Source: Escherichia phage vB_EcoM_PHB05. From it: a DNA stretch of 64,000 bases. The notes beneath the pieces are model-generated. The model was not told the DNA's origin, ran no database searches, and saw nothing but the letters and a program-made list of their open reading frames with translations. The stretch's first letter is position 1. Every line of letters begins with the position of its first letter. The DNA is taken from the sequence record NC_052652.1; one strand, given 5' to 3'. The position numbers and the translations under genes are program-made. Positions 11,918 to 45,829 of the stretch are shown in pieces.

Positions 11918-11951
11918 AAAGCCCCTAGAATCGCTTCTAGGGGCTTTTGTT
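11918..11951. terminator. bidirectional terminator between convergent blocks
   Basis: Hairpin GCCCCTAGAA-TCGC-TTCTAGGGGC flanked by A-run upstream and TTTTGTTTG downstream. Confidence 0.6.
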
Positions 11952-12014: not shown

Positions 12015-12272
12015 TTAGGAATGCATAAAATCTTCTTCAGGGCAGGTTGAGAGATAAGAGATGCACGTTGGGACAACAACAACATTGTCTTTAAGGTTTT
12101 CAACCAAGCCTTTTGTAATCCCAGCTACTGCCCCGTTAATATCTGCTTGACGGATACCAAAACCTTGTTGTGCGGATAGATAACAAAATCCCTCACCTTT
12201 CTGTTGATTGTTATTGAAGTAATAAACGTAGTGCATCATAAAATGGTCTTTAACGATTTGTTCTGTGGTCAT
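12015..12272 (-). CDS. hypothetical protein
   Basis: 85-aa ORF with AGGAG RBS on - strand. Confidence 0.45.
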   Translation of the reverse strand: MTTEQIVKDHFMMHYVYYFNNNQQKGEGFCYLSAQQGFGIRQADINGAVAGITKGLVENLKDNVVVVPTCISYLSTCPEEDFMHS

Positions 12273-12285
12273 AATATTCTCCTAT

Positions 12286-12308
12286 AAGAAAAGGGGCTTT
12301 CGCCCCCT
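12286..12308 (-). terminator. terminator/attenuator hairpin (GGGGCTTTCGCCCC family)
   Basis: GC hairpin followed on - strand by TTTTCTT; same motif recurs at about 23575 and 36665. Confidence 0.5.
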
Positions 12309-12316
12309 TGGTTAAG

Positions 12317-13129
12317 TTATTTAGTCAAATGATCTTCTATCATTTTTATGAAAGCAGGATTGCTAAAAGCATCTGCGGCCTTTTCTCGATAAACAAAGAC
12401 TCCTCTATCTTCGTAAAGAAGAGTTTCTTCGTAATTAATTCCTGGGTTAACAACAATCATTTTTGTACCCATACTAAGTGCAGGGAATAATTCCCAATTA
12501 AAATTGATAACTTGGTTTGAACATCCTACTACAACAACCAAATCTTGCATGGTCAAAGTATCAAACAAGTGAGCCATATCTGCATACAAAGGTGCAGCCT
12601 CACCAAAAAATACAACATTAGGCTTCACCCAGTTATAATCATCTATGTTTATGCTGTTGTAACCAATATCTACCAGTGTTTTGTAATCCCCAGGGTGCAT
12701 ACGGTAAACTACTTCAGGAAGATATCCGTGCACGTGAATAACCGAATCTCTGTCTACACCTGCTCGCTCTAGTAGATCATCAACGTTTGTTGTCAAGTTT
12801 ACTACTTGGTTAGGATATTCCTTAAACCACTTTGCTATTTGAATATGTGCAGCATTAGGTTGTACATCTTTAAGCTCAACACGTCTTTTGTTATAAAATT
12901 CGTGTGTTTTGGCATACAAATCCATACCGTTTTCGTCTACACCACCAACCACTGGAAGATCTGGAGATGTTCTAACACGATAACCTGCTTGGAAAGCTCC
13001 AATATCGCAGACCTCTTCTAAATCATATTCTTGCCATAAAGCACGACCACTATCTGTGTCTGTTCGGAATGTTCGAATCCCACTGTCTGCACTTAAACCT
13101 GCGCCACTGACAAAAATTACTCTTCGCAT
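12317..13129 (-). CDS. Sir2-like (sirtuin-fold) NAD-binding protein, apparently lacking zinc ribbon
   Basis: GAGLSADSGIRTFR matches sirtuin GAGIS.ESGIP.FR; TTNVDDL..AG, HVHG, KPNVVFFGE blocks present; no CxxC pairs seen. Confidence 0.6.
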   Translation of the reverse strand: MRRVIFVSGAGLSADSGIRTFRTDTDSGRALWQEYDLEEVCDIGAFQAGYRVRTSPDLPVVGGVDENGMDLYAKTHEFYNKRRVELKDVQPNAAHIQIAKWFKEYPNQVVNLTTNVDDLLERAGVDRDSVIHVHGYLPEVVYRMHPGDYKTLVDIGYNSINIDDYNWVKPNVVFFGEAAPLYADMAHLFDTLTMQDLVVVVGCSNQVINFNWELFPALSMGTKMIVVNPGINYEETLLYEDRGVFVYREKAADAFSNPAFIKMIEDHLTK

Positions 13130-13686
13130 TCAATATCCTCTTCGTAATCATCATCCCAAGAAGATGCGTCGTAACGCTCTTCCTCTTCGAAATCCCAATT
13201 AATTTCTACTCCAAAATCTAAAAATAATTTAACAATATTTTCTGTAGAGTAGTATTTATCATAAGCGTTAGTTAGTTCCCAATACTTGTCACTCAATTTT
13301 TTATAAGTAGGATCATTATAGTCATAATCTACTTTATAACCATAGTCATACATCTCTTGTTCAGCTTTAAGCATAGCTTCTGGTGTAAGAAGATTAGGGA
13401 ACGGACGATTTCTTTCTTTTAACTTAGAAGCAATCCAGTTTGCAACATTCGCCACTTCACCATCTCGATTATCACCTAAACAACTTGCATAATCTCCATC
13501 TTCGTAAGTGCCTAAATCACCAATGACTTCATGTACAATAGACGAATACGATCCACACGTTTCACAATCTGAAAAAGTGTCTACTGTTGTAATATCAATA
13601 GATAAAACTGGTAAAGCCATAGCTTCTTTCACACAAGCCTCCTCATATAATAACATGTCATCAAAACCCATATATCCTCCAGACAA
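13117..13686 (-). CDS. hypothetical acidic protein
   Basis: 189-aa D/E-rich ORF. Confidence 0.5.
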   Translation of the reverse strand: MSGGYMGFDDMLLYEEACVKEAMALPVLSIDITTVDTFSDCETCGSYSSIVHEVIGDLGTYEDGDYASCLGDNRDGEVANVANWIASKLKERNRPFPNLLTPEAMLKAEQEMYDYGYKVDYDYNDPTYKKLSDKYWELTNAYDKYYSTENIVKLFLDFGVEINWDFEEEERYDASSWDDDYEEDIECEE

Positions 13687-13687
13687 A

Positions 13688-13712
13688 TAAAGCCCCTGTT
13701 TGGGGCTTTGGT
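13688..13712 (-). terminator. intergenic hairpin (possible attenuator)
   Basis: AAGCCCC-TGTTT-GGGGCTT hairpin between two - strand genes. Confidence 0.35.
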
Positions 13713-13725
13713 TAAGTTTTACGGA

Positions 13726-14337
13726 TTATACCAGACTTTTAAGGTACTTGTCAAGGGCTTCTTGATCACCTTGACAAACATAGCAACGGAAGTCTTGAGC
13801 AGAAGGTTCTTTGTCCTCGTCCCAATCCCAGTAGACAGTACCTTTATAGCGTGAGCCTGGGAACTTGAAGTATGCTACATGAGTAATATGGTGTGGGCCA
13901 CCACAAAACTCTGTAAAAGTAAATTGAGGATACGCTGCTTTAACTGTATTTTCAAACCAAGTTTTACGATCTAATGCTTCGTTTATAAAATAAGCATGGC
14001 GTTCCATTTCATCCCAATCTTTCCAAACGCATTTTTCATCCAGAGAGAAAACAAAATTTTCACTGTTAAACTCGTCTGTATCTGATTCCAAAATATCATA
14101 GTCATGTGCACTAGGTATCCACCATCCAGCTTCTAATAGTGCTTTTGCAGGTACAAAACCTTTTTCAGCGTATTGATCAAATTCTTTTACTCTACGTACA
14201 GTGCAGTATTCATCTTCACCACCAATGTCCAATAGACAAGCGCCTCTGCGTCTTGCTGCAAGACCATGTGTATCAAAAACTACAACGCTACCTTCACCAT
14301 CTTCACGATCTACTTGATATGCAACTTTTTGAGTCAT
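13726..14337 (-). CDS. hypothetical protein
   Basis: 203-aa ORF. Confidence 0.5.
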   Translation of the reverse strand: MTQKVAYQVDREDGEGSVVVFDTHGLAARRRGACLLDIGGEDEYCTVRRVKEFDQYAEKGFVPAKALLEAGWWIPSAHDYDILESDTDEFNSENFVFSLDEKCVWKDWDEMERHAYFINEALDRKTWFENTVKAAYPQFTFTEFCGGPHHITHVAYFKFPGSRYKGTVYWDWDEDKEPSAQDFRCYVCQGDQEALDKYLKSLV

Positions 14338-16203: not shown

Positions 16204-16724
16204 ACAACCTCCTCGTAATTGTTATTGTGTTTTACTGTCTCAACATACAATAAAGATTCCATCTGTAATACATTACCAGAAATAATAAACCCATAAGCCA
16301 TTTCAGATGTGTCTATATCGTATGCCCCATCTTCCGGTTTAGCAAAGTGTAAAACTATTTCATCTGGGTTTTCTTCATCCCATATTTTAGAAATTTTCCG
16401 AACCAGAATATTAGCTAAAATAGTTGACATTCGGGATAAAACCGTATCCTCGTATCTTTTAAAACCTAACCAATAGAGGTTAAGAATTTCTACTTCTTCT
16501 TGTGTTAAGTTTTTGTCTAAAGTAATCAGATCTGTAGTGCACGGCGTTTTTGTTGAACCTACTGTTACAAAACCTGGAGTGTTATGAAAAACAATCTTAA
16601 CTTTATCACGTATGAAGTTTAAACCTTGTGCCTCCACTATATATTGTATTGTAGGTACAATATCGTTTGTTACATCAATAAAGCTATCTTTGATGACGCT
16701 TATATTATTTCTGGACAAGACCAT
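16200..16724 (-). CDS. hypothetical protein
   Basis: 174-aa ORF. Confidence 0.5.
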   Translation of the reverse strand: MVLSRNNISVIKDSFIDVTNDIVPTIQYIVEAQGLNFIRDKVKIVFHNTPGFVTVGSTKTPCTTDLITLDKNLTQEEVEILNLYWLGFKRYEDTVLSRMSTILANILVRKISKIWDEENPDEIVLHFAKPEDGAYDIDTSEMAYGFIISGNVLQMESLLYVETVKHNNNYEEVV

Positions 16725-17283
16725 TCTCCTCTAAAATAGGTTTAATAAATTCGAAGATTTGTTTTTTACTTTTACCTCGAATATTAAAACAAGGAACATT
16801 AAACTTTTTAGCCAACATCCAAGCTGTTCTTGTACCACCCAAAGGATCTCCATTTTTATCTGTATTTGCACAAGCTAAAAGAAAACAAGACGGTTTTGGA
16901 TTCTCAAGATCTTTGCCAAGAACTTGGTGGATATTCCTTTGATGTAATTTTTTAGCACCTTGAGATAATCTGTCCCAAGCCGGATGCAATTCTTTTGCAT
17001 ATTGCAAGGTTAGAGCATAGTTTACACTATCTGGTCTGTCAAGAACAATAACCTCTCCCTCTATCTCATTACCTTTAAACGAAGGCCAAGGAATGTATAT
17101 TTCTTTCTTTGTATTGTTTCCACTATCATATACCCCGCATTCAAATGCGGAATCTGCACCTTCTGCTTTACCAGATCGCAAAATGAACCATGTAGATAAC
17201 CATTTTGCAACAGCTACCATAGTGTCCCATTCTTCGTCTGTAATATCTCTGCTACCAACACCTGTGTAGAATAAATCGCTCAT
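16705..17283 (-). CDS. DprA/SLOG-like Rossmann-fold protein
   Basis: Start refined to ATG 17283 (AAGGAGAA RBS); motif GVGSRDIT ... SGKAEGADSAFE resembles DprA/SLOG GSR...SGGA.G.D signature. Confidence 0.45.
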   Translation of the reverse strand: MSDLFYTGVGSRDITDEEWDTMVAVAKWLSTWFILRSGKAEGADSAFECGVYDSGNNTKKEIYIPWPSFKGNEIEGEVIVLDRPDSVNYALTLQYAKELHPAWDRLSQGAKKLHQRNIHQVLGKDLENPKPSCFLLACANTDKNGDPLGGTRTAWMLAKKFNVPCFNIRGKSKKQIFEFIKPILEENGLVQK

Positions 17284-17293
17284 GGTTTTCTCC

Positions 17294-17614
17294 TTAACAA
17301 GTAATATTGGGAATAATACTGGGAGTAACAATTGGATTAATAGGATACGTATACCAAGGGCTTCCAATTTCCCAAGGATTATAAGGTGTACGAGGATCAA
17401 ATGGAGGCGTTACTTGAGGCTTTTTCCAAATCTCCGCTAGTTGTTTCTTCCATTTATCCCTTGCTGTCTCGTTATCTTCATCCAACTGTTCATCATTATC
17501 TTTTATTTCTGTTTTTGGAAATAAAAGCTCTTTGACTAACTCAACATCTTCCGTTTCAAGAGTAGTCTCTTTCGTAATATTCCCTACTGTCTCTTTAATT
17601 GTGATTTTATACAT
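17294..17614 (-). CDS. hypothetical protein
   Basis: 106-aa ORF. Confidence 0.45.
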   Translation of the reverse strand: MYKITIKETVGNITKETTLETEDVELVKELLFPKTEIKDNDEQLDEDNETARDKWKKQLAEIWKKPQVTPPFDPRTPYNPWEIGSPWYTYPINPIVTPSIIPNITC

Positions 17615-18360
17615 TAGTCCTCCTCTAAAGTAGAATAAAATTGTAACGTATTTGAATCATCAAAATATGCAAAGGTTAAATTGCCATTGAACACAGACCC
17701 AGTATCCATATATACCCTATTACTGCTAATTACAGGTTTAGGAACATAAGAATGCCCGTGAAATACATAATCTACTCCTGAAACTCTAGGAAGAAGAATC
17801 CCTTCAAGTGCGCAATCTATCATATCACGATCCCACATTAAAGATTCTGTGAATCGAGAAACTTGCTCTTTATCCATATTCAAACAAAATGGCAAAACTT
17901 CTGTCACTGGTAAATGTTCCAAAACTGAAGGATATCCACCGTGAATAAAGCCTAGTTTCATATTACGATAGTTGACAACAAGTACAACAGGTAAATCTTC
18001 TAGCATCAAAGCAAGAGCAGTTGCACCTTCTTCTCCACACTCATTTAGAACTGTATGGCCTCCGTTCTGAAACCAACATTCGTAATATCGCCTATCACCT
18101 TCTAGCAACCCTTTAATCATCATATCTTCGTGATTTCCACGAATAGCATAGCGATTTAGCTTTCTGGTGAATTCAACGGTACAACGAAAATTCTGCTTGC
18201 CGCGATCTGTAAGATCTCCTAAAGATACAACAACATCTTGATCTCGGATACCTAAAGTATTAACACCTTTCTGGTACAAATCAAAGCAGCCATGTAAATC
18301 ACCAATAATAAACAGGTCTTGATCATCTTTTACACTAATTTCTTGATATACTAGCATCAA
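17614..18360 (-). CDS. Ser/Thr protein phosphatase (calcineurin-like metallophosphoesterase)
   Basis: GDLHG, GDLTDRG, GNHE motifs in lambda-phosphatase order. Confidence 0.8.
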   Translation of the reverse strand: MMLVYQEISVKDDQDLFIIGDLHGCFDLYQKGVNTLGIRDQDVVVSLGDLTDRGKQNFRCTVEFTRKLNRYAIRGNHEDMMIKGLLEGDRRYYECWFQNGGHTVLNECGEEGATALALMLEDLPVVLVVNYRNMKLGFIHGGYPSVLEHLPVTEVLPFCLNMDKEQVSRFTESLMWDRDMIDCALEGILLPRVSGVDYVFHGHSYVPKPVISSNRVYMDTGSVFNGNLTFAYFDDSNTLQFYSTLEED

Positions 18361-21585: not shown

Positions 21586-21625
21586 ATCTCCTCCTAATAA
21601 CCCCCGTGAGGGGGTTTATGTTAGA

Positions 21626-22279
21626 TTAATTATCAGAGGACACTTTATCAAGTTTTTCAGAGACTGTCAATACTTTTTCTTGTGATTCTTTCATTTCTGC
21701 TAAAATACTTTCAGCTTCATCACTATCAGGATCACCAGTCAACAGCATACTAATTAGTTGCTCCTTGCTGAAGTTCAGAATATCTTCCGCTGTTAGCTCC
21801 AGTTGTTCTTCGATCTCTTCAACAAAAGTTTCACCGCCTGAAAAAGCATCTCGTAGTTTTGCAACTTCCATCGCTTCTTCTGGGGTTGCCCCAGCGTCTA
21901 AAGCTGCTAAAGCAAAATCTGCCCCACTACCAACAGCATAGTAATCTTCAGTTAAAGGGTATGCTCGCGTTGGATTATTACCCTCGTGCATATAAATTTT
22001 ACCGTCTGGGTGAACAACCAATGCCACAAACTCTTCATCTTCTTTATCAGGATCTGACTGGATCACCAAACCTGGGATTGTCTCTTGTGCTGCCTGGCAC
22101 TGTAAGTTTTGTTCGAACCAAGAAAAGAAAGTCAGGATAGAAGACAGACGTCCTGCACCACCAACAAGGTAATCCCCAATTTTACGCACTTTCTTGAAAT
22201 TTAAAGTGTCTACTCGATTACCTACTGTTACTTTACCGTCAGATAGAATTTTGTTATGTGTTGCAATAATTGTTGTCAT
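21626..22279 (-). CDS. HslV-like Ntn-hydrolase peptidase
   Basis: N-terminal M-TTIIAT (Thr right after Met) and blocks GDGKVTVGN...KKVRKI, GGAGRLSSILTFF, YAVGSGADFALAA parallel E. coli HslV. Confidence 0.65.
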   Translation of the reverse strand: MTTIIATHNKILSDGKVTVGNRVDTLNFKKVRKIGDYLVGGAGRLSSILTFFSWFEQNLQCQAAQETIPGLVIQSDPDKEDEEFVALVVHPDGKIYMHEGNNPTRAYPLTEDYYAVGSGADFALAALDAGATPEEAMEVAKLRDAFSGGETFVEEIEEQLELTAEDILNFSKEQLISMLLTGDPDSDEAESILAEMKESQEKVLTVSEKLDKVSSDN

Positions 22280-22770
22280 TGTACTTCCTCCTGTAGTGTT
22301 TTAAGGACTGCTTTACCACCGCTTACATACTTACGTAGGTAATCAATAGCTCTTAGTGTTTCTTTATCCACAAGAATTTTATTAGTTCTTGTTAGTGGAT
22401 GATTTAGTAAATCACTGCAATTTCTTACTAACATAGACTTCTTGTGAAAGATACTGCTAAGAAAAAGAAGTTTAGAATCTTCTTCATCAATCAGGAGTAA
22501 TTCTGAATTAGATCCAGCTACATTTATTATACACTCAAACAAGCCTTCTTGACTATCAGATAATTCCTGGTAATATTTAGTTAGCCAATCCTCTCCTTTT
22601 AACCAACTAAAAAACATCTGAACTTTTTGCAAAGTTGTCATGTTCTCTAAACGAAGAGATATTTCTTTTTCAATCTTGTCAATATAAATCTGTCTAAACT
22701 CATTCGGCTTAACTAAGCCAGCTTGATAGCATTCATCAATACCATTGCGATCAATCTCAATTAGCGTCAT
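22276..22770 (-). CDS. hypothetical protein
   Basis: 164-aa ORF. Confidence 0.5.
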   Translation of the reverse strand: MTLIEIDRNGIDECYQAGLVKPNEFRQIYIDKIEKEISLRLENMTTLQKVQMFFSWLKGEDWLTKYYQELSDSQEGLFECIINVAGSNSELLLIDEEDSKLLFLSSIFHKKSMLVRNCSDLLNHPLTRTNKILVDKETLRAIDYLRKYVSGGKAVLKTLQEEVQ

Positions 22771-22806
22771 TTAACCTCCATAACAGGCATCCTTGCCTTG
22801 TAATTA

Positions 22807-23559
22807 TTAATATACTTCCGTGATGAACTGAGACAAACGGGAACGTTGGTTATCAGCAGTTGTCATTTCAACATAACCAATAAAATCTACAATAGCTTCC
22901 CTTTCTCCTTCTTCGTTAATAGGAACAACACGATCTAACAAATCACCTAACCCGTTAGCTCTTCGTTTAATTGCATATGTTTGATTAACATCACCCATAA
23001 TGACAATACGTGTATTAAGACCTGCTCGCTCAAGGAGAAGTTTTACTGTGTTTGGTGACATAAGTTGAACTTCATCAATAAGAATAATGCTGTTATCCCA
23101 CGTAGCACCTAGTGCATAGTTTGGAATATTAAGTTCAATTTTGCCACTTGCAATATCGTTTTCCAATTTATTTGCAGTCATAAACTGTTGGAAAATTCTT
23201 TTAGTTGACTCGTAGTGTGCTGCTAGTTTATCAGTCTTATCTCCAGATAAGAAACCGATTTGGTCATCACCTACTTCTGTCGGGTTTTTAAGGAAAATCA
23301 ACTTTCTGAAATCACCAGCTTTAAGCATTTGCAATGCTTTCCATAGTGCTGTTGTCGTTTTTCCTGTTCCTGCTGGGGCATTAACAATGGTTAAATCATT
23401 CCAAACCATGCTTCTTACAATAGCTTCTTGATTCCCAACAGGGGTAAATTCATCAAGACGGTAATCATCATTTCCTACTGCTTTAGCCGCATAACGACTG
23501 GCACGTTTGTCATCATTGGCTGCTGATTGACGACGAGCCTTTGCGGTTTTATTTCCCAT
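22807..23559 (-). CDS. phoH: PhoH-like ATPase
   Basis: Walker A APAGTGKTT, Walker B IILIDEVQ, PhoH-like overall blocks. Confidence 0.85.
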   Translation of the reverse strand: MGNKTAKARRQSAANDDKRASRYAAKAVGNDDYRLDEFTPVGNQEAIVRSMVWNDLTIVNAPAGTGKTTTALWKALQMLKAGDFRKLIFLKNPTEVGDDQIGFLSGDKTDKLAAHYESTKRIFQQFMTANKLENDIASGKIELNIPNYALGATWDNSIILIDEVQLMSPNTVKLLLERAGLNTRIVIMGDVNQTYAIKRRANGLGDLLDRVVPINEEGEREAIVDFIGYVEMTTADNQRSRLSQFITEVY

Positions 23560-23574
23560 GTTTGCACTCCTTAT

Positions 23575-23596
23575 AAAAGGGGCTTTCGCCCCTTTG
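23575..23596 (-). terminator. rho-independent terminator (GGGGCTTTCGCCCC family)
   Basis: AAAAGGGGCTTTCGCCCCTTT hairpin with T-run downstream of endolysin gene on - strand. Confidence 0.6.
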
Positions 23597-23597
23597 T

Positions 23598-24098
23598 TTA
23601 GTTATAAGCGTCTAATGTTCCAGTTTTAAGCACCTGAATTACACGCTCTGCGCGATTAGGCGTTTGGCGATACCATTTACTTTTACGTAAATTTATAGAG
23701 GCTTGAGTATAATATGAATTACTCACTAAAGTCAAGCTATTTTTGAAAGATTCTGCACCTTTCAACCCCATTTGAAATACCATATTGATAATAGCCATTT
23801 TACGATTAGGACTTACTTTATCGTAAATAGGAGATAATATGGTACTTGAATGGATTTGTTGTATCGCTTTCTTTACGTCACCCTCAAAGATTTTTCTAGC
23901 TTCCGCTTCAGTAATAACCCCATTAGTTTTTCTACCTACTAAGTTATCAAGAATGCGTATAGCTTCTGCTTTATCTTTGAGTTTTGTCAGAAGGTGTCCA
24001 ATACCAACCGTCCAATACCCTTCGGTATCAGTGTATACAGTTAGCTTTAGTCCTTCATCAAAACGTAACATATCAAACACATCAACTACTTTAGCCAT
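23598..24098 (-). CDS. endolysin, T4 lysozyme (gpe)-like glycoside hydrolase
   Basis: Near-collinear match to T4 lysozyme: DMLRFDEGL, DTEGYWTVGIGHLLTK, NGVIT, INMVFQMG, SKWYRQTPNRAERVI, TGTLDAY. Confidence 0.9.
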   Translation of the reverse strand: MAKVVDVFDMLRFDEGLKLTVYTDTEGYWTVGIGHLLTKLKDKAEAIRILDNLVGRKTNGVITEAEARKIFEGDVKKAIQQIHSSTILSPIYDKVSPNRKMAIINMVFQMGLKGAESFKNSLTLVSNSYYTQASINLRKSKWYRQTPNRAERVIQVLKTGTLDAYN

Positions 24099-24258
24099 GT
24101 TTTCCTTATATTAGTCGCCCTCCCCATGATCTAGCTCTTGAAACAGTAGGTGTTCAGGAGACATTTCACGTTTAGGCTTCGTCTTTTTAGTTTGGGACTT
24201 AAGCTCTGTTGCCAAAGCACGAGAAAAGATCTTACGTTTCTGTTTACCTTTCATATTG

Positions 24259-24525
24259 TTACTCCGCAATCTGAGCCATGAATTCACGTAGTTCAGAAAA
24301 ACCTCCTACGTGGGTTAGATGTTCACCATCTTCCACAAAAATTTGAGGAAAGGTACGTGGCAGAACACCTGTTTTCTCTAAAACCAGATTCTGAATCTGA
24401 TCTAAAGAATAGTCTTCATCTAAGGTAAGATATTTAAAATCCTGTTCACGCTGTTCCAGTAGAATCTTAGCGTTAGTGCAGAAAGGACAATTTGGTTTAC
24501 CGTAGATAATAAAATTCATTTTCAC
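24259..24525 (-). CDS. glutaredoxin (NrdH/Grx-like)
   Basis: CPFC active site near N-terminus, about 88 aa. Confidence 0.8.
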   Translation of the reverse strand: MKMNFIIYGKPNCPFCTNAKILLEQREQDFKYLTLDEDYSLDQIQNLVLEKTGVLPRTFPQIFVEDGEHLTHVGGFSELREFMAQIAE

Positions 24526-25352
24526 TCCTTGTTTAAAAGTATAGTTAAAGTTCTTACAATACCGCTATCAACACTTCGCGGAGTTAAAGTAGGATCTGTT
24601 TTTAAATAAGATGTTGCTGGTCTGACTGCTTTAGAATTATAGGTTGAAGCAGATACAGGATTAACTGTAACAGATAAATCTATAACAAGAAATATCTTAC
24701 GTGCAAAATCATACCAAGAAATATAATCTGCACCTGCATAGTGTACAATTTTACTATTTACACCATCTTTTACAAGTTTAAAAATTGTTTCTGCAAGATC
24801 AGGTGCATAAGTAGGACATGATAAATGATCACATACTACATTAAATTCTTTTTGACCACCGTTGTAGCGTTCCAACATAGTTTTCAAAAAGTTATGTCCA
24901 AATTCACTATAAACAGAAGCTGTTCTGATAATAAGTGCTGTAGGACAAACTGCTTGTACTAAAGTTTCACCTAATTGTTTACTGTAACCGTAGGTGTTCA
25001 AGGGGTTTGTTTTACTATCTTCTGTGCCAGCAACATTCCCATCAAAAACATAGTCTGTTGAAATATGTACAAACTGTATCAGTAAATCATTACATGCTTT
25101 GGCAATGTTTGTTGCACCGTATGCATTAACATTTATACAAGTGTTAACATCTTCTTCAGCTTTATCTACTGCCGTGTAAGCTGCACAATTCACAACAACA
25201 TCAGGCACGTGCTGTACAAGACTATTCATAACATCTTTAAAGTTGGTAATGTCTATATCACTTGCTTCAATCAAAATAACATCTTCGGGCGCAACTTTTG
25301 CCAAAGACTGTCCTAATTGACCTTTTGAACCAAAGATTAAAAATTTTGTCAA
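24522..25352 (-). CDS. rmlD: dTDP-4-dehydrorhamnose reductase
   Basis: N-terminal Rossmann FGSKGQLG, STDYVFDG, YGYSK catalytic motif; last gene of rml block. Confidence 0.8.
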   Translation of the reverse strand: MTKFLIFGSKGQLGQSLAKVAPEDVILIEASDIDITNFKDVMNSLVQHVPDVVVNCAAYTAVDKAEEDVNTCINVNAYGATNIAKACNDLLIQFVHISTDYVFDGNVAGTEDSKTNPLNTYGYSKQLGETLVQAVCPTALIIRTASVYSEFGHNFLKTMLERYNGGQKEFNVVCDHLSCPTYAPDLAETIFKLVKDGVNSKIVHYAGADYISWYDFARKIFLVIDLSVTVNPVSASTYNSKAVRPATSYLKTDPTLTPRSVDSGIVRTLTILLNKE

Positions 25353-25903
25353 AATATGATCTCCTTTAGTGTTTTGGCTTGCTGATCTTTTTGTGACAAG
25401 ATAGGTTTAAAATTAATATCATTAAAGATTAAATCAAAACCCCAATCTATATTGATATCTGGATCATTCCACGCAAGACTACACTCTGAAGTCGGATCGT
25501 AATATTCTGTACATTTATATTCAAAATCAGCAATGTCGCTAATCACAACAAAGCCATGAGCGAAACCAGGAGGAATCCAAAATTGTGTTTTATTCTTTTC
25601 AGATAAGAGAACACCTACCCATTCTCCAAATGTTGGACTACCAACCCTAATATCTACAGCAACATCATAAACTTCACCACGAACACAACGTACTAACTTC
25701 CCTTGTGGGTTTTTCTTTTGAAAATGAAGTCCACGTAGAACTCCTCTGATAGAACGTGAATGGTTATCTTGGACAAAGTTTTGTTTACCTATGTATTGAT
25801 CATATAAAGCCTGATTAAAACTTTCTAAGAAAAAACCACGTTCATCTCCGTAAACGTCAGGTTGAATGATCAACAAATCTTCGATTTTTGTTGCTTGAAT
25901 CAT
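25349..25903 (-). CDS. rmlC: dTDP-4-dehydrorhamnose 3,5-epimerase
   Basis: 184-aa cupin with DERGFF and RGLHFQ motifs. Confidence 0.8.
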   Translation of the reverse strand: MIQATKIEDLLIIQPDVYGDERGFFLESFNQALYDQYIGKQNFVQDNHSRSIRGVLRGLHFQKKNPQGKLVRCVRGEVYDVAVDIRVGSPTFGEWVGVLLSEKNKTQFWIPPGFAHGFVVISDIADFEYKCTEYYDPTSECSLAWNDPDINIDWGFDLIFNDINFKPILSQKDQQAKTLKEIIF

Positions 25904-25918
25904 TTAACTCCCCCTTTT

Positions 25919-26788
25919 TTATTTTAATTTAAGTAAATACTTACCGTAGTCTGTTTTACTTAAAACCTCTCCAGAACTTTTTACAGAGTCTAAAGTAATC
26001 CATTCATTTTTAAAAGCAATCTCTTCTAGGCATGCAACCTTCATACCTTGTTGCTTTTCTATTGCATGAACAAATTGAGATGCTTCCATAAGACTTTCAT
26101 GTGTTCCTGTATCCAGCCAAGTGAAACCTCTTCCTAGTTTACAGACACGTAAAGCCTTTTCTTTCCAGTACATCTCATTTATATCTGTAATCTCTAACTC
26201 CCCTCTAGCAGAAGGTTTAACACTCTTAGCTTTCTGTATAACAGAATTATCGTAAAAGTACAAGCCTGTAATTGCATAGTTGCTTTTTGGTGCTTTTGGT
26301 TTTTCTTCAATACTCACCACTGTACCTTCAGAATCAAACTCAACAACACCAAATCTTTCAGGATCATTTACGTGATACCCAAAAATATTAGCTCCACCAT
26401 TCTTTTCAATATGTTCTTTAGCAGAATCTAAAATGCTACCAAAACTCTGACCAAAGAATAAATTATCACCTAGCACAAGTGCTACAGAATCTTCACCAAT
26501 AAAGTTCTCACCAATAATAAAGGCTTCTGCTAAACCTTTTGGGCTGTTCTGTACTGCATACTGTAGGGAAATACCAAAAGAAGAACCATCACCTAAAAGA
26601 TTTACAAAATTAATTTGATCTTCTGGTGTTGTAATTATTAGTATTTCCCTAATTCCAGAAAGCATTAGGACAGAGAGTGGATAATAAATCATAGGCTTAT
26701 CGTAAATTGGTAATAGTTGTTTACTAACCCCTTTAGTAACTGGGTAAAGTCTTGTTCCGCTACCACCTGCTAAGATAATACCTTTCAT
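25919..26788 (-). CDS. rmlA: glucose-1-phosphate thymidylyltransferase
   Basis: [18 protein letters not shown] nucleotidyltransferase signature, about 289 aa. Confidence 0.9.
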
Positions 26789-26796
26789 ACTCCTCC

Positions 26797-40271: not shown

Positions 40272-40994
40272 TTAAGCAATGATTGCTGCGATATTAGGTT
40301 TAACAAAGGTAGATGGCTTCATAATTTTACCTTTGTCATCAAAGAATACGTATACCTTTTGAACTTCGTTATATACAGCATGTACTCCAGTATAAGAACC
40401 TTCTGCACGATCTTTGCTTCGCATCTCGATAGCATCACACTCTTTTTCAAGAGCTTCAACAATATCCTTAGTTTCCCAAATAGCCAGGAGTTGCTTCTTG
40501 GTAGGATACTTGGACTCATTGCTATTCAACACTTCACGCATAACCTTCTTCTCGTTATAAACAGAACGCACCAAAGTATCTCGTGCCATACGTGTAAGTG
40601 TAAGAGACATTAGGGCAAATTGCAAGTCATTTTCTACCATTTTATCAAATTCAATGATAACATCGTAAATGTTTTCTGCCAGAACATCTCCTGTCGGCAT
40701 TTCCAGAGCTTTATCAACACCTTCTTTACCAAAGAACATAAACGCCAAGTAGGATGCTACCACAAAAATATCTGCTGCTGCATCAAGTAATTCAACGTGA
40801 TCATTTTCCTGCGCTGCTGCTTGGAACTCTTTTAGTTCTTCTCGTACAAAAGAAAGTTGAGCTTCAAACATCTCTTGAGTAAATTCTGGAGTCACTCCAC
40901 CACGTGCCTTAGCATTCCAAGCAACAATTTGATCGGCAGCTTTGATAAAGAAGCTATTGTCCACTTTTACTTGTTTGAAAAAATTCTCGATCAT
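40272..40994 (-). CDS. MazG-like nucleotide pyrophosphohydrolase (tentative)
   Basis: EELKE ... ELLDAAAD spacing resembles MazG E..E...E..D metal-binding motif. Confidence 0.4.
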   Translation of the reverse strand: MIENFFKQVKVDNSFFIKAADQIVAWNAKARGGVTPEFTQEMFEAQLSFVREELKEFQAAAQENDHVELLDAAADIFVVASYLAFMFFGKEGVDKALEMPTGDVLAENIYDVIIEFDKMVENDLQFALMSLTLTRMARDTLVRSVYNEKKVMREVLNSNESKYPTKKQLLAIWETKDIVEALEKECDAIEMRSKDRAEGSYTGVHAVYNEVQKVYVFFDDKGKIMKPSTFVKPNIAAIIA

Positions 40995-41192
40995 TGTTTC
41001 TCCTTATTTAAAATATTGTTCTAACAAAACACTAATGCGAACTACCGATTCGCCCATATACGCCCCAGCACAGAGGAAAACAACAAATCTACAAAAATTG
41101 CAGTACCATTTGTTCACTGGAAACGAGGCTAACATTATAATTGCAATAGCAATTAACATCATAAGAAATGTTACTAATACCATATTTACCTC

Positions 41193-42308
41193 TTACTCTG
41201 CTGGTTCCCAAGTACCTGGAATCATCTTACGTACACGTACACCTGTTGGTTTAGTAGGTATTCCACCATCGGAAAACTCTTCATACTCAATCTCAACAAA
41301 TTTACCAATTAACATTTCGGCATTTTCTGCTTTACGATAGTTAATGGTTTCATCTGAATCCTTACGCATCAGGAATTCGACTACTTTACCATTTTCCATC
41401 TCGCCTGTCAATACCCCGTCACCATTTTTATCACGTTTTGCACTTACCACCTTAACTTCAAGCGTCTGCCGTGGTTTACGTTTAATAACATCATAAGAAC
41501 GTTTATCAAACTCGTAAACACCTTGTGCATTACGATAAACAACACCTTCAGCTTTCTCACGCAGAGCTTTTGCATAGAACGCATCAAACTGCTCTTGGTT
41601 TTCAATGTACTCTGTATGCACTACACAAATAAGTTCATCTAAACCTTTATCTTCAACAACTTCTTTTAGAGCAGCCAAAACTTCAACCCTCTTCTCAAAT
41701 GGTACAGATGGTACAGGAACATCATATACATAGTATTTAAGAAGCGGAGTGTTAGCATTATGCTTTTTCCACGCACTATTAATTTGTTGAAGGCTAAGGA
41801 CACCCAAACCAGCAAAAACTTCACCGTCAAGAGGATGACCAACTACTTCTTTAATGAAGGTTGGAATTTCTTTCCAGTGAGGTGGAAGTTTATATACTTC
41901 CCCAGCTTTAGATAAGCATTCACCTTGCATGTTAATCATTGAACGTAGACCATTCAATTTATACTGTGCATAACCTGGGAACAAAACACGATCAGCATAA
42001 TCTTTATAATCCTGACATTTCATGGGCGTGGAAGGAACATGGTTTTCAGCTTCCTCTTTTGTTTTATAGTACCCATTCTTAAGTTGTTTTGTCCATTTGG
42101 CAAGAGCTTCTATTTCAGCTTGTTCTTCTGCTGTTGTTTCATTTGAGCGACCAATATTTTTAGGTTCTGCCGTATAAGATTTGCTAGTAATCTTTCCACC
42201 TAATTGACCATGAGCAACAGTTACAACACTACCTTCGGTATAGACTGACCACTGTTTAATTTTACCTGTAGAAGTTTTACCATATAGTGTAGGATTAGTT
42301 TGTTTCAT
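41193..42308 (-). CDS. ATP-dependent DNA ligase
   Basis: Start refined to ATG 42308 (GGAGG RBS); motif I KLNGLR, EGVVYR, KxK blocks. Confidence 0.8.
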   Translation of the reverse strand: MKQTNPTLYGKTSTGKIKQWSVYTEGSVVTVAHGQLGGKITSKSYTAEPKNIGRSNETTAEEQAEIEALAKWTKQLKNGYYKTKEEAENHVPSTPMKCQDYKDYADRVLFPGYAQYKLNGLRSMINMQGECLSKAGEVYKLPPHWKEIPTFIKEVVGHPLDGEVFAGLGVLSLQQINSAWKKHNANTPLLKYYVYDVPVPSVPFEKRVEVLAALKEVVEDKGLDELICVVHTEYIENQEQFDAFYAKALREKAEGVVYRNAQGVYEFDKRSYDVIKRKPRQTLEVKVVSAKRDKNGDGVLTGEMENGKVVEFLMRKDSDETINYRKAENAEMLIGKFVEIEYEEFSDGGIPTKPTGVRVRKMIPGTWEPAE

Positions 42309-42498
42309 CTTTAACCTCCAGTTGCGAAAGAACCCATTTAGCCATTTCAATTTCACCGTGTAGTCTGCCTAGTTCATAGGCATCATCAATATTACCACCA
42401 GTGTAATCATCCACCATAAAGTAAGGATCTTCACTACTGTTAGGTGCGTTTGCAATTCTCGTTAGTTCTTCAATAAATGTCATAGTTACCCTTACCAA
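42295..42498 (-). CDS. hypothetical protein
   Basis: 67-aa ORF. Confidence 0.4.
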   Translation of the reverse strand: MVRVTMTFIEELTRIANAPNSSEDPYFMVDDYTGGNIDDAYELGRLHGEIEMAKWVLSQLEVKDETN

Positions 42499-42716
42499 TT
42501 ATACACAAGAGTTTGAATCTCTTCCATCAAGTCTTCAAGATCTGTATCAACGTATTCAGAAGATGTTGCCATAAAGTATGTAATCATTGTGAACCCTTCC
42601 GAAGAAAGGGCATCAAGGATATCATTAAACATATCTTCCATTTCAGTATTCTCACCAAATGAGAATAACATTTGTTGATCTTCGCTTACACCTTTAACAT
42701 AGATAGCTGTACTCAT
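42492..42716 (-). CDS. hypothetical acidic protein
   Basis: 74-aa ORF. Confidence 0.4.
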   Translation of the reverse strand: MSTAIYVKGVSEDQQMLFSFGENTEMEDMFNDILDALSSEGFTMITYFMATSSEYVDTDLEDLMEEIQTLVYNW

Positions 42717-42719
42717 ATA

Positions 42720-43040
42720 TTAATCCTTAAGACGTTCATTTAAATCTGCAATAACATCACCTAAATCTTCACATTCCAGTGTTAACTCTGAAACTTGTCC
42801 ACTCAAATAACAAACTTCTTCATTTAAATCTGAAATAATGTTTTCTAATGAATCTACTTGGTCATCATACGAACGTTTTGTTTCTTCAAGTTCTTCCGTA
42901 AGATCATTAATCAAACGGAGCAAAGATAAGATATAGCCGTCTCCTGTCTCGTTCCTCCACTCACTTCCGTAGCGATAAATAATAATTTCACCATTATCGA
43001 CTACTGTAAAATACTTACCTTCACCAGAATAAATTTCCAT
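42720..43040 (-). CDS. hypothetical protein
   Basis: 106-aa ORF. Confidence 0.45.
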   Translation of the reverse strand: MEIYSGEGKYFTVVDNGEIIIYRYGSEWRNETGDGYILSLLRLINDLTEELEETKRSYDDQVDSLENIISDLNEEVCYLSGQVSELTLECEDLGDVIADLNERLKD

Positions 43041-43049
43041 ACACTCTCC

Positions 43050-43454
43050 TTATTGTAGCTTAAGTGAACTGCGAAGACGTTTCTCTTGCTGATCACGAAT
43101 ATGTTGTGGAACCTCATGAATTGAGTCGTTACCGTGCCTATTTTCAACAACTAAGGAGATAACTTGATAACCAAACTCTTCAGCAAGAGTTAAATAAGGT
43201 TTAAGTTCTTTCTCTGTGGTTGAAGTGTTAGAGACAATAATCTTTTTAATATTAGATGCCATAGCATCACGAACAATACTCTGACACCATGCGTGTGCTT
43301 TACCTACATTCTCTGGCTTCCAATCGTAAACACCACTTTCTGTGTAATGATATTGATCTGCCTCACAGATAGGCCAATAACCTTCAGAAATAATTTCTGC
43401 TACTGTAGATTTACCTGCACCTGAAACACCACGTAAAATGATAAGTTGTTTCAT
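43050..43454 (-). CDS. P-loop kinase, polynucleotide 5'-kinase-like
   Basis: MKQLIILRGVSGAGKST Walker A at N-terminus, about 134 aa like T4 Pnk kinase domain. Confidence 0.6.
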   Translation of the reverse strand: MKQLIILRGVSGAGKSTVAEIISEGYWPICEADQYHYTESGVYDWKPENVGKAHAWCQSIVRDAMASNIKKIIVSNTSTTEKELKPYLTLAEEFGYQVISLVVENRHGNDSIHEVPQHIRDQQEKRLRSSLKLQ

Positions 43455-44387
43455 TTAGCCTCCAAAGAAGTTTTCTATTTCTTTACGTCGCTCTTGTGGA
43501 TCTAAAGCAGCCCATTGAGTCTTAGTAAAGTTGTTTCGAAGCCATTCTAGCAAAGTATAATATTCTTCGTCAACAATTTGTTTAGCATTTTTTGGGTTGT
43601 CCCAAATCATATCCCACTTCTTATTGCCACCACGCATAAGGAATTTCTTAGCAAGATAATATGGTGACTTAATCTTTAACAGCAAGTTAAACGGATAGTT
43701 TGTTTCCCGAACAACAAACCCTTCGTGCTTACAATGTTTAGACATTTCAACAACATCTGAAAATTTAATCATCGGATAAACTTCAGGACGTTTAAATTTT
43801 GTAATAGATGCAATCCCATCAAGCACACCTTCGGGTAGCATGAAACTTGTCCCATCAAGATTTTGAATTCTTGCTCCAATTAAGTATGCGCCTGGTTCTT
43901 CTTCGACAATATGTGGATCAGAAGGATCACAGATTTCAAAAAGGAAAGTTGCTTTTGCACTTTCTGTCCACTTAATGAAATATTCTATGTCATCACACTC
44001 GGAAACAATATGGTTCTTGGCAAGAGTTGCAAAATCTGACTCTAGGCTCCCTGTTGTTGATACAATAAGTTGCCCTTTGTACACACCTACAGATGCCATA
44101 AAACCGTTTACTTTACGGACAGCATCTACAAGCTGGTCTGCTGGAAGATCTGTACCATTCTCAAAACGATTAAAGATTTTAGTAAAAGGCCAGATAACAA
44201 CATTGTCTTCTGAGTCAACAACCAACCCACGACAATCTAGGAGTCGTTTGTCAACGTTCCACAAGTTATCCCAGAATACATTGTTTTTGTATTTAAGTAC
44301 AGCAAGACCAGCATACTCTCCAGATTTAACTTCTTTTTTATGCACTAAACCTTTTGCAATCAGGTCATCACAATTGAACTTAGCCAC
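43455..44387 (-). CDS. covalent nucleotidyltransferase ligase (RNA-ligase-like)
   Basis: Motif I KVNGF, motif III FLFEI, motif IV EGFVVRE, motif V LLLKIK in canonical order. Confidence 0.6.
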   Translation of the reverse strand: MAKFNCDDLIAKGLVHKKEVKSGEYAGLAVLKYKNNVFWDNLWNVDKRLLDCRGLVVDSEDNVVIWPFTKIFNRFENGTDLPADQLVDAVRKVNGFMASVGVYKGQLIVSTTGSLESDFATLAKNHIVSECDDIEYFIKWTESAKATFLFEICDPSDPHIVEEEPGAYLIGARIQNLDGTSFMLPEGVLDGIASITKFKRPEVYPMIKFSDVVEMSKHCKHEGFVVRETNYPFNLLLKIKSPYYLAKKFLMRGGNKKWDMIWDNPKNAKQIVDEEYYTLLEWLRNNFTKTQWAALDPQERRKEIENFFGG

Positions 44388-44388
44388 C

Positions 44389-44940
44389 TTAATCTCCTTT
44401 GATTATCTTATGATGGTCTACAACAACAATATCACGCTTATCCATAATAGAGATGATTTCGTCAAAATGCAAGATTTTTCCGTGTGCATCCCAACCAACA
44501 TCCAACATTTTCCCATACAAATGATCAGGGAATGATCCGTGAGAGTGCCCGTGTAGCATGATTGATCCATGCCCTTGTTTATTCCAAGCAGCCATAGGGT
44601 AATGACTTAAGACGAAGAACAGTTTCTGATATTTCACTTCGTCATAATACACCACCTCGCCATATTCTGCAAGCACTTCTCGGTGTTTGCTGTAATCATG
44701 GTTCCCAACACAGTAAGTGATATCACCTTGAAGACGTGAAGCAATTTTACGGGTATCTTCTTCAGTCCCGAAACAGAAGTCGCCCAAATGCCACATCTTG
44801 ACACCAGGACTCGTAGCACATTTATTCCATGCTTCAATCAGTGCTTCTGTCATATGCTCCATATCTTCCCACGGGCGATATTCAGGAGCAAACTCTCGAA
44901 TACGTTTGTGCATAAAATGCAAATCACTTGTAATAAACAT
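44389..44940 (-). CDS. calcineurin-like metallophosphoesterase
   Basis: SDLHF, GDF, GNHD, GHSH motifs. Confidence 0.8.
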   Translation of the reverse strand: MFITSDLHFMHKRIREFAPEYRPWEDMEHMTEALIEAWNKCATSPGVKMWHLGDFCFGTEEDTRKIASRLQGDITYCVGNHDYSKHREVLAEYGEVVYYDEVKYQKLFFVLSHYPMAAWNKQGHGSIMLHGHSHGSFPDHLYGKMLDVGWDAHGKILHFDEIISIMDKRDIVVVDHHKIIKGD

Positions 44941-45344
44941 TAGTATAATCCCTCGCTGAATAGTTCACTGTCGTGACCATTTCTTTCATAGTTAATTTGT
45001 TTGGCGTTATCTGCAATGATATAAGCATCTTTGCGACTCCACCAATTATAATATTGATCAATAAACCCTTGATTATCAGGTAAGCAAAACAGTTTATCGA
45101 TCAATCCTGCATCTTTTAAAACATTAAGTTGTGCAGATAGTACAGGATTTGCATGCCTAACACAAGGAATAATTAACTCTTCGCCATTGTTGAGAATATA
45201 CTTATTCGCAGCGCAGACTATAACACGTTGAGCATAGTGATCCTCACCAATCCAAGTAAGAGGTTGGTAACAAATATCATGTTGATTAGTAGCGCACATC
45301 AATTTTCTACATACTCTTCGTCTGTATGTATATCGTAAAAGCAA
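44940..45344 (-). CDS. hypothetical protein
   Basis: 134-aa ORF; start uncertain. Confidence 0.45.
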   Translation of the reverse strand: MLLRYTYRRRVCRKLMCATNQHDICYQPLTWIGEDHYAQRVIVCAANKYILNNGEELIIPCVRHANPVLSAQLNVLKDAGLIDKLFCLPDNQGFIDQYYNWWSRKDAYIIADNAKQINYERNGHDSELFSEGLY

Positions 45345-45454
45345 TCTTCAAAAGTTGCAAGTGCTTTTTCTACATCGGGCCAATGGTTAGTGTGTTTGTA
45401 TATATAAAACCCATCCCCTTCATCTACCCAAATAACATAAAGCATAACACCTCC

Positions 45455-45829
45455 TTAATAGTTAACACGTTTAATTTCAACACCATAGGATGAAATAAAA
45501 TTTTCCTTGGCTAACATATATTTACCAGCAGCAGAAGGATTTGATGTATGAACATAGATAGTTTTAAGAGCATCCCATTCACCCGCGTACAACATACATT
45601 CTACGTCTAAGAACGCATGATATCCTTCTTGATCTTCTCCAAGATCATTATCGAAGTGTATCTCTGAGATATTATTGAAATTATCTTCATCTGAAACAAA
45701 AGATAACCAATCCTCAAAAGATTTTAACCAAATGGCATCCTCATAACCATAATCTTTAGGATCTCTTAAATCGTCTAACCAAAGAATTTTAGCCACTATC
45801 AACCCCCTTCCTGTTTCTCTTCTTTCCAA
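45455..45829 (-). CDS. hypothetical protein (receiver-domain-like residue spacing)
   Basis: ILWLDD ... HFDNDLG ... VHTSNP ... K spacing loosely resembles CheY-like fold. Confidence 0.4.
   Translation of the reverse strand: MERRETGRGLIVAKILWLDDLRDPKDYGYEDAIWLKSFEDWLSFVSDEDNFNNISEIHFDNDLGEDQEGYHAFLDVECMLYAGEWDALKTIYVHTSNPSAAGKYMLAKENFISSYGVEIKRVNY

Follow-up and report, generated by a model that had tools for sequence, protein, structure and literature searches.

A 64,000-nucleotide stretch of the Escherichia phage vB_EcoM_PHB05 genome (sequence record NC_052652.1; hereafter, the window) encodes a protein of the Sir2 family, or sirtuin, that has lost the zinc site of its relatives. The analysis presented here establishes the family membership of this protein, the absence of zinc ligands, the conservation of catalytic and pocket residues, the deacylase-type fold of its predicted structure, the apparent restriction of its clade to phages, and its gene context. 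The protein is very likely an intact sirtuin that uses nicotinamide adenine dinucleotide (NAD+) rather than an NADase of the defense type. The favored reading, which we hold tentatively and at somewhat less than even confidence, is that it acts as an NAD+-dependent protein lysine deacylase on host or phage proteins. Already on record are the gene, its family, the lack of a zinc site, and the genes of the NAD+ pathway; the window reveals nothing new in these respects.

The sirtuin gene corresponds exactly to the open reading frame (ORF) at positions 12317..13129 on the minus strand of the window, which begins with ATG and encodes 270 amino acids. Its translation holds GAGLSADSGIRTFR, TTNVDDLLERAG, HVHG, and KPNVVFFGE. 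A preliminary description of this DNA had proposed a sirtuin-like N-terminus followed by several downstream blocks; it gave no strand, and every motif that it quoted is present in this ORF. The protein matches the Pfam SIR2 domain (PF02146) with E=1.3e-22 and 81 bits against a cutoff of 24, passing the curated threshold, and matches phrog_2162, "Sir2 (NAD-dependent deacetylase)", along its full length (E=5.7e-105; residues 1-269 on profile positions 10-270 of 277). These two scores place Sir2 membership far beyond chance. The alternative identity named in the preliminary description, a non-sirtuin Rossmann protein with a chance match at the N-terminus, is rejected by the full-length PHROG match, the Pfam SIR2 match, and the matches of the predicted structure to sirtuin folds. 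The ORF, the Pfam and PHROG matches, the AlphaFold2 model, and the fold matches identify the gene as the orthologue of phi92 gp038, a zinc-less sirtuin of class III (CobB/SIRT5) ancestry. It is a real sirtuin gene, probably with an active enzyme as its product.

The 3 kb around the gene are 97.5-98.3% identical to those of phi92-like E. coli myoviruses (Justusliebigvirus, Stephanstirmvirinae), with coordinates nearly as in phi92. The corresponding gene, gp038, is named "Sir2 (NAD-dependent deacetylase)" in the RefSeq annotation of phi92, and Sir2 is annotated in dozens of phi92 relatives as well. Homologues were found by tblastn in 982 of 50,697 phage records (about 2%), including phi92-/phAPEC8-like, rV5-like, and T5-like phages, Klebsiella and Salmonella relatives, KVP40-like Vibrio phages, and some jumbo phages. 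The T5-, rV5-, phi92-, and KVP40-like phages among these carriers are used as models and in therapy. A large protein search yielded 779 relatives; the best 120 of these are all full-length and derive from phage-sized contigs or metagenomes. No relative was found in 185,579 bacterial and archaeal species genomes (one genome per species) in an exact scan for clade-specific motifs, which divergent copies could escape. The clade appears to be confined to virulent phages.

In sirtuins, the zinc ion has a structural rather than a catalytic role (PMC8556138). The window protein has only two cysteines (C41 and C203) and no CxxC motif, and residues 135-168, the 34 residues aligned to the CobB zinc ribbon, contain no cysteine and a single unconserved histidine; the preliminary description was thus correct in reporting that CxxC zinc-ribbon pairs are absent. 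Class III/CobB proteins hold a structural zinc through two pairs of cysteines in their small domain, and these pairs have no counterpart here. Across 42 clade members, each with one to five cysteines in total, no cysteine column of the zinc ribbon is conserved. A survey of the 140 nearest full-length cluster representatives, drawn from 1.84 billion proteins, found the zinc cysteines missing in 53, so zinc-less relatives are common. The glutamine of the TQNxD motif is replaced by threonine in 32 of these 53 zinc-less representatives versus six of 83 with four cysteines.

Sirtuins of two jumbo-phage contigs (L065, 279 kb; L066, 608 kb) keep TQND together with four to six zinc-ribbon cysteines. 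In a neighbor-joining tree of Sir2 proteins from 62 loci, these zinc-containing versions lie outside the zinc-less (TTND) group; the tree, built to polarize the relocation of the gene discussed below, is a rough one in which the gene-context types are not cleanly monophyletic. Because the jumbo-phage sirtuins with TQND and cysteines fall outside the zinc-less group, zinc loss looks like a derived event within phage evolution. A literature search for a zinc-less deacylase precedent in Sir2La found no statement on zinc in the texts searched, and Sir2La is not used as a precedent here. Phage Sir2/CobB proteins without a zinc site, and a suggested tie between them and NAMPT and NMNAT, were published in 2016 for phiSt2 and KVP40 (PMC5107563).

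Despite the loss of zinc ligands, the active site is conserved. Residues invariant in all 42 clade members include G9, A10, G11, S13, S16, G17, F21, and R22 of the NAD loop; N115 and D117; the catalytic H134-G135; F175/E177 and N228-P229 of the substrate loops; and G202/S204. The superfamily features, namely the GAGxS...GIPxFR loop, the (T/Q)N.D motif, and the catalytic His-Gly, are all present, with threonine in place of the glutamine of TQNxD. Residues were mapped from CobB by pairwise alignment (offset 39), checked against Y92, I131, and V187. Four acyl-pocket positions of CobB that are mutated in CobB variants according to Protein Data Bank (PDB) entry titles (A76, Y92, I131, and V187) correspond to C41, Y79, V116, and V172, and CobB R95, H147, and F190 correspond to R82, H134, and F175; all seven are invariant across the 42 clade members. 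Y79 and R82 form the Tyr-x-x-Arg pair that marks class III sirtuins (Y92/R95 in CobB, Y102/R105 in SIRT5). This pair in SIRT5 and CobB binds the carboxylate of succinyl- or malonyl-lysine, as reportedly described by Du et al. in 2011 and Colak et al. in 2013, and PDB entry titles agree. Among the 140 nearest representatives, the catalytic histidine is found in all 140 and the Tyr/Arg pair in 105. The clade is acidic, with a median isoelectric point of 4.97 and net charges of -6 to -19.

Sequence and fold comparisons place the protein with the deacylases. The nearest solved proteins by sequence are E. coli CobB (E=3e-18), followed by Sir2Af2, Sir2Tm, Sir2Af1, and SIRT5. The structure considered here is a prediction, made with AlphaFold2 from 42 aligned sequences, with a mean predicted local distance difference test score (pLDDT) of 91.8 and a predicted template modeling score of 0.88. 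Three beta-strands (residues 135-143, 151-154, and 167-172; pLDDT of 95 or higher) occupy the place of the zinc ribbon in this model. A Foldseek search with the model retrieved 279 PDB sirtuin chains at E<=1e-3, with CobB and Sir2Af1 as the best folds. In the fold ranking, deacylase sirtuins score highest (Sir2Af1 21.6, PfSir2A 19.1, SIRT4 18.6, SIRT1 and SIRT2 17.9, Hst2 17.6), ahead of the ADP-ribosylating SirTM (14.8) and SIRT6 (14.5), and the defense NADases are ranked lower still (PsSIR2 13.4, KomC 12.3, SIR2-HerA 12.3, ThsA 11.6, FAM118B 9.7, and Avs5 9.5).

This ranking bears directly on the proposal of the preliminary description that a zinc-less Sir2 protein would be an effector with NADase or ADP-ribosyltransferase activity, either modifying host proteins or depleting or modulating NAD+. 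SirTM sirtuins do ADP-ribosylate, and defense Sir2 domains are NADases (PMC9503650); the NAD pocket of the window protein is intact, and the change of glutamine to threonine in TQNxD could alter the handling of the ribose. However, comparison of the predicted structure with deacylase and NADase clades, the check suggested at the outset, put SirTM and the defense NADases well below the deacylases, and both fold and sequence are nearer to the latter. Conserved, too, are features for which an NADase would have no use: the acyl-lysine tunnel and the substrate loops FGE and NP. The PADLOC defense profiles gave one insignificant partial match (E=0.0066, 37 residues), and no macrodomain, HerA, SLOG fusion, pAgo, or STAND partner was present among the scanned neighbors. 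The motif scan of bacterial and archaeal genomes, as noted, found no relative, and a free-running NADase would presumably oppose the NAD+-rebuilding NARP1 pathway that the phage itself appears to encode. A defense or toxin identity is rejected on the insignificant PADLOC match, the fold ranking, and the lack of a relative in the bacterial-genome scan, and the rule that zinc-less Sir2 domains are NADases or ADP-ribosyltransferases does not apply here; we consider an NADase or ADP-ribosyltransferase effector highly improbable. The preliminary interpretation is partly supported.

Several features point to the deacylase reading: a tunnel and substrate loops preserved as in CobB, a beta-ribbon that is intact, a fold like that of deacylases, and a surface that is acidic. 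Enzymatic activity, substrate class, and the timing of expression are inferred. According to this reading, the protein would be catalytically competent and would descend from CobB/SIRT5-type (class III) deacylases whose cysteine-zinc ribbon was exchanged for a cysteine-free beta-ribbon of equal length. NAD+ would most likely be bound in the canonical Sir2 pocket, and each reaction cycle would cost one NAD+ and free a lysine of a host or phage protein from its acyl group, yielding nicotinamide and O-acyl-ADP-ribose. The conserved Tyr/Arg pair suggests an acyl group that is either acidic (succinyl, malonyl) or short (acetyl). The gene appears to be co-transcribed with that of an acidic neighboring protein, gp039, under a sigma70-type promoter of its own, and its transcript appears to stop at a separate terminator. 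If correct, this reading implies that virulent phages may rewrite the host acyl-proteome.

Several observations weigh against lysine deacylation. All seven NCBIfam CobB-type models fall below their cutoffs, the best reaching 106 bits versus 243 (NF001753); the protein is of CobB ancestry, yet no CobB equivalog. The replacement of glutamine by threonine in TQNxD, which tracks zinc loss, may signal a shift in function. A literature search for biochemical or genetic tests of phage sirtuins recovered only two in silico proposals. Finally, tight linkage in two or more phage lineages joins the gene to RNA end-healing and sealing genes and to none for protein modification.

The immediate surroundings of the gene in the window suggest a compact arrangement. 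Directly upstream, the gp039-like gene (13117..13686, minus strand; phrog_9509) encodes a very acidic protein of 185-189 amino acids with a C-E-T-C motif and is restricted to phi92-like loci. Its last 13 nucleotides overlap the start of the sirtuin gene, whose ATG lies within the final codons of gp039, and the two are probably translationally coupled. Upstream of both genes is a sigma70-type consensus (13754..13725, minus strand) that matches at 12 of 12 positions: TTGACA, an 18-nucleotide spacer with TG, and TATAAT. It is the only perfect site in the 64 kb, against a simulated mean of 0.083 per window, and the consensus match suggests a promoter for gp039 and the sirtuin gene. A hairpin is found at 13689-13709, between the predicted promoter and the gp039 start. 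A terminator-like hairpin, GGGGC-GAAA-GCCCC followed by a T-run (12309..12291, minus strand), starts 8 nucleotides past the sirtuin stop codon and likewise matches consensus. The two genes appear to form a small unit that would be read by the host polymerase.

Downstream, a small gp037-like protein (12015..12272, minus strand; phrog_15991) is encoded by the final gene before a consensus bidirectional terminator (11918..11947) that closes the convergent region. The upstream neighbor, encoding a gp041-like protein (13726..14337, minus strand; phrog_8514), accompanies the sirtuin gene in eight phi92/phAPEC8-type loci, including distant ones. No Pfam domain was found in gp037, gp039, or gp041, and their PHROGs have no assigned function; an AlphaFold2 model of gp041 (pLDDT 84.7) gave no informative fold match. 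The sign of the GC skew flips at about 12000 and about 48000, matching switches of the coding strand from plus to minus to plus.

Gene neighborhoods in other phages provide the grounds for the main rival explanation. Fifty-nine Sir2 loci from IMG/VR were surveyed with 10-kb flanks and a panel of candidate partners; T5-like phages dominate this set. In the phi92/phAPEC8 type (type A, eight loci), gp041 and sometimes gp039 precede the sirtuin gene, and RNA ligase is absent within the flanks. All eight of these loci carry a NinI-like calcineurin-type phosphatase and a DprA-like gene 3-7 kb away; in the window, the DprA-like gene (phrog_768) is at 16705-17400 and the phosphatase gene at 17614-18360, both on the minus strand, and the pair is inverted in two distant loci of the type. 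In the rV5/Mydo/PVP-SE1 type (type B, about 14 loci plus Murica), the genes run metallophosphoesterase, T4 Rnl1-like RNA ligase, cREC (PF20274, cyclic-phosphate processing), kinase-like P-loop protein (AAA_33), Sir2, ATP DNA ligase, and MazG, a sequence present in Murica and 11-13 IMG/VR loci. Loci of the T5 type (type C, about 33) contain, one after another, NrdD, Sir2, a small ORF, HAD_SAK_2, and two DUF7415 proteins; HAD_SAK_2, a "Swiss Army Knife RNA repair" phosphatase (PF18143, E=2e-20), is encoded two genes downstream of Sir2 in 28 of the approximately 33 loci. The profile phrog_18062 bears the name "Sir2 (NAD-dependent deacetylase)" and matches the C-terminal half of T5-type HAD_SAK_2 (L003, 6985-7491); the name was probably carried over from the neighboring sirtuin gene. 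A T4-like contig (L064, 4490-13758) has the order RlaP, SPFH, two ORFs, NAMPT, Sir2, endonuclease VII, NrdD, and NrdG. Here a NAMPT-type gene (NAMPT_N and NAPRTase domains) lies directly upstream of a zinc-less sirtuin gene, and RlaP, an RNA-repair nucleotidyltransferase, is encoded about 4.5 kb upstream; this contig is an independent case of Sir2 beside both NAD+ synthesis and RNA-repair genes.

The rival explanation proposes that the sirtuin uses NAD+ in the manner of Tpt1/KptA, removing a 2'-phosphate, or otherwise processing an RNA end, that remains once tRNAs cut by host anticodon nucleases have been healed and sealed; Rnl1, the kinase-like P-loop protein, cREC, and the phosphoesterases of the phage would act before or after it. 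Iyer et al. (2022) described the phage sirtuin clade with its RNA-repair neighborhoods and predicted that "the majority of viral sirtuins" act in RNA repair in the manner of KptA/Tpt1 (PMC9503650); the neighborhoods behind that prediction were reproduced in the IMG/VR survey. The linkage is recurrent and partly independent, with the block of Rnl1, cREC, AAA_33, and metallophosphoesterase genes around Sir2 in Murica and rV5-type loci, HAD_SAK_2 in T5-type loci, and RlaP in the T4-like contig. Moreover, sirtuin and Tpt1 chemistry would run in parallel, and the Tyr/Arg pair could hold a phosphate. This explanation, if true, would place an NAD+-dependent repair step against anticodon-nuclease defenses.

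The window contains the whole set of Rnl1, cREC, kinase-like, and metallophosphoesterase genes in an RNA-repair-type cluster (40272..45829, minus strand; Pfam assignments) that is syntenic with the cluster in Murica and 13 IMG/VR loci of the rV5 type and lacks the sirtuin gene. The cluster comprises genes for a MazG-like protein (40272-40994), an ATP DNA ligase (41193-42356), an AAA_33 kinase-like P-loop protein (43050-43454), a T4 Rnl1-like RNA ligase (43455-44387), a metallophosphoesterase (44389-44940), and a cREC cyclic-phosphate-processing domain (45455-45829), all on the minus strand. Every other gene of the type B arrangement is thus present at 40.2-45.8 kb, with the NARP1 pair divergent at 47.8 kb, and the sirtuin gene is 30 kb away. 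Genes for RNA end processing and ligation adjoin Sir2 in rV5- and T5-type relatives and do not adjoin it in the window. The homologues in PVP-SE1, as given in the phi92 annotation notes, run gp096-097 (Nampt, Prs), gp103, gp106, gp107, gp108, gp109 (Sir2), gp110, and gp113; this order and the 30-kb gap in the window indicate a relocation of the sirtuin gene within the phi92 lineage. Just past the NARP1 pair, 16 tRNA genes are arrayed (51277-54158, plus strand), among them three tRNA-Met, tRNA-Lys(UUU), Tyr, Asn, and Gln. Anticodon nucleases classically target some of these isoacceptors, which bears on the theme of RNA repair.

Against a role in RNA repair stand the 30-kb separation from the repair cluster and what seem to be a promoter and terminator of the gene's own. 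The acyl-lysine tunnel and beta-ribbon have remained CobB-like, with a narrow pocket of the lysine type in which a backbone 2'-phosphate would hardly reach C1''. The entire clade carries the acidic charge given above, and zinc-containing relatives also have the Tyr/Arg pair, an ancestral feature rather than a novelty of the clade. The protein has no homology to Tpt1, Pfam detecting SIR2 only, and auxiliary genes of phages also cluster for reasons other than a common pathway. On balance we regard a Tpt1-like function as unlikely, while ranking it as the strongest competitor of lysine deacylation.

The preliminary description had also noted a Prs-like/NAMPT-like gene pair in this genome, and Pfam finds both at 47832-50530 on the plus strand. 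The Adps-like gene (Prs fold, 47832-48725) encodes a protein 36% identical to Bas63 gp79 (E=3e-43), and the Namat-like gene (NAPRTase family, 48797-50530) encodes one that is 39% identical to Bas63 gp80 over its full length (E=3e-135). Bas63, a Felixounavirus, is not among the near-identical matches to the pair, and its proteins were compared separately. The two genes are co-oriented and 72 nucleotides apart, as in a NARP1-type operon, a function that they would be predicted to share. Bas63 genes 79 and 80 are Adps and Namat of NARP1, as demonstrated experimentally; NARP1 rebuilds NAD+ from ADP-ribose and nicotinamide, by which phages escape NAD+-depleting defenses such as SIR2-HerA (bioRxiv 10.1101/2024.02.11.579819). 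Given the homology to Bas63, the pair is best read as anti-defense NAD+ reconstitution and not, as first labeled, as classical salvage. Public annotations name the two products ribose-phosphate pyrophosphokinase and nicotinamide phosphoribosyltransferase. The phi92 RefSeq record places a "hypothetical tRNA" inside the Namat coding sequence (phi92 49736-49886; L007 10237-10387; window approximately 49390-49540), where ARAGORN found no tRNA in the window; the feature is probably an annotation artifact.

A functional coupling between the sirtuin and NARP1 is possible. In its explicit form, which is compatible with either lysine deacylation or RNA repair, the sirtuin would be the main NAD+ consumer of the phage, and NARP1 or NAMPT would recycle nicotinamide and ADP-ribose derivatives and relieve inhibition by nicotinamide. 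Adps and Namat genes are found within 10 kb of Sir2 in nine type B loci, in eight of which they are divergent and 2-3 kb upstream of the phosphoesterase gene; the distance from NARP1 to Sir2 is 5-8 kb in eight rV5-type loci and about 1.6 kb in another contig (L062), and the NAMPT-type gene of the T4-like contig adjoins Sir2. The sirtuin gene and the NARP1 pair each occur, with at least 95% identity, in 54 records of the Justusliebigvirus type (the two sets were counted separately). KVP40-type Vibrio phages carry Sir2 with NAMPT and NMNAT (PMC5107563), and the Namat reaction uses up nicotinamide (bioRxiv 10.1101/2024.02.11.579819). However, 35 kb separate the two loci of the window, which lie on opposite strands and belong to different transcription units. 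Of the 2,042 phage records with Namat homologues, most come from lineages that lack this Sir2 (Staphylococcus, Pseudomonas, Mycobacterium, Bacillus, and Listeria phages); Namat lies within 10 kb in none of about 33 T5-like Sir2 loci; and NARP3 is found in only 124 phages. The independent linkage events number only two or three, and the role in which NARP1 has been demonstrated is defense against host NADase systems (bioRxiv 10.1101/2024.02.11.579819). The explicit form of the coupling is improbable by our estimate. The linkage in type B loci and in the two contigs L062 and L064 speaks for the coordinated NAD+ economy that was first proposed, and the arrangement of the window speaks against it. 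If such a coupling were real, NAD+ use by the phage would be balanced by NARP-type resynthesis in a setting where NAD+ depletion is a major bacterial defense.

The repair and recycling proposals can also be joined. In rV5-type phages the repair genes, Sir2, and NARP1 form one block of about 12 kb, and in the phi92 lineage they are dispersed and all retained. The sirtuin might supply the NAD+-consuming reaction in a self-contained phage module for tRNA repair that is NAD+-neutral by way of NARP1, a proposal to which we assign very little weight. In such a module it would act like Tpt1 on 2'-phosphorylated junctions or would deacylate catalytic lysines of the adjacent RNA and DNA ligases; the products would be nicotinamide and either ADP-ribose 1'',2''-cyclic phosphate or O-acyl-ADP-ribose, which cREC and the phosphoesterases would convert to ADP-ribose and NARP1 to NAD+. 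The notion that the sirtuin keeps the catalytic lysines of neighboring ligases free of acyl groups would reconcile deacylation with the gene neighborhoods and is speculation.

Two further observations concern the phage as a whole. Four records labeled "Campylobacter phage" (MG065639, MG065645, MG065656, and MG065689; A150, A145, C3, and A110a) are about 97.5% identical to the window phage in both tested regions, likely owing to host mislabeling or contamination. An HslV-like peptidase and a four-gene set for dTDP-rhamnose biosynthesis, unusual auxiliary genes, are encoded at about 21600-27800 on the minus strand, according to the phi92 annotation (gp058, gp064-067).

In comparison with known systems, Tpt1/KptA offers a functional analogy only: both would perform an NAD+-consuming, nicotinamide-releasing transfer, and genes for RNA ligase and end healing lie nearby in related phages. 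The fold is unrelated, sequence similarity is lacking, and the window protein is acidic; of the PTS_2-RNA fold and the SIR2 domain, only the latter was found, and the top folds are all sirtuins. Tpt1/KptA proteins are defined by a catalytic Arg-His-Arg-Arg tetrad.

The defense Sir2 NADases (ThsA, DSR1/2, SIR2-HerA/Nezha, KomC, and Avs5) and SirTM share with the window protein the Rossmann core and the catalytic Asn/His region. Many of these proteins also lack a canonical zinc ribbon. For the window protein, neither a significant match to the profiles of defense systems (Thoeris ThsA, DSR, SIR2-HerA, SPARSA, Avs5, Kongming) nor a fusion or operon with a sensor or partner (SLOG, HerA, pAgo, STAND, KomB) was found among the scanned neighbors, nor did the exact motif scan find a relative in bacterial or archaeal genomes or their mobile islands. 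SirTM is distinguished by a class M fold and a macrodomain operon, neither of which was found here; its operons also carry GcvH-L/LplA2.

In contrast to CobB and other class III sirtuins (SIRT5, Sir2Af1), the window protein lacks the zinc cysteines, has threonine for the glutamine of TQNxD and cysteine for CobB Ala76, and carries an insert of 20-25 residues (approximately residues 50-72) that is missing in many clade members. Its clade appears to be encoded only by virulent phages, and it falls far under the NCBIfam CobB cutoffs.

The closest counterpart is the phage sirtuin clade itself (PHROG 2162; the "Sir2-like" protein of T5, the rV5 protein, PVP-SE1 gp109, and Sir2/CobB of KVP40 and phiSt2), of which the window protein is a full-length member, with 47-60% identity to rV5- and T5-type proteins and 36% to that of Vibrio phage nt-1. 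Its zinc-less state is as published for the KVP40 and phiSt2 proteins. The phi92-like phages differ from the rest of the clade in gene position: the sirtuin gene lies outside the cluster of Rnl1, cREC, kinase, and ligase genes and instead has gp041, gp039, and gp037 as neighbors, with an apparent promoter and terminator of its own.

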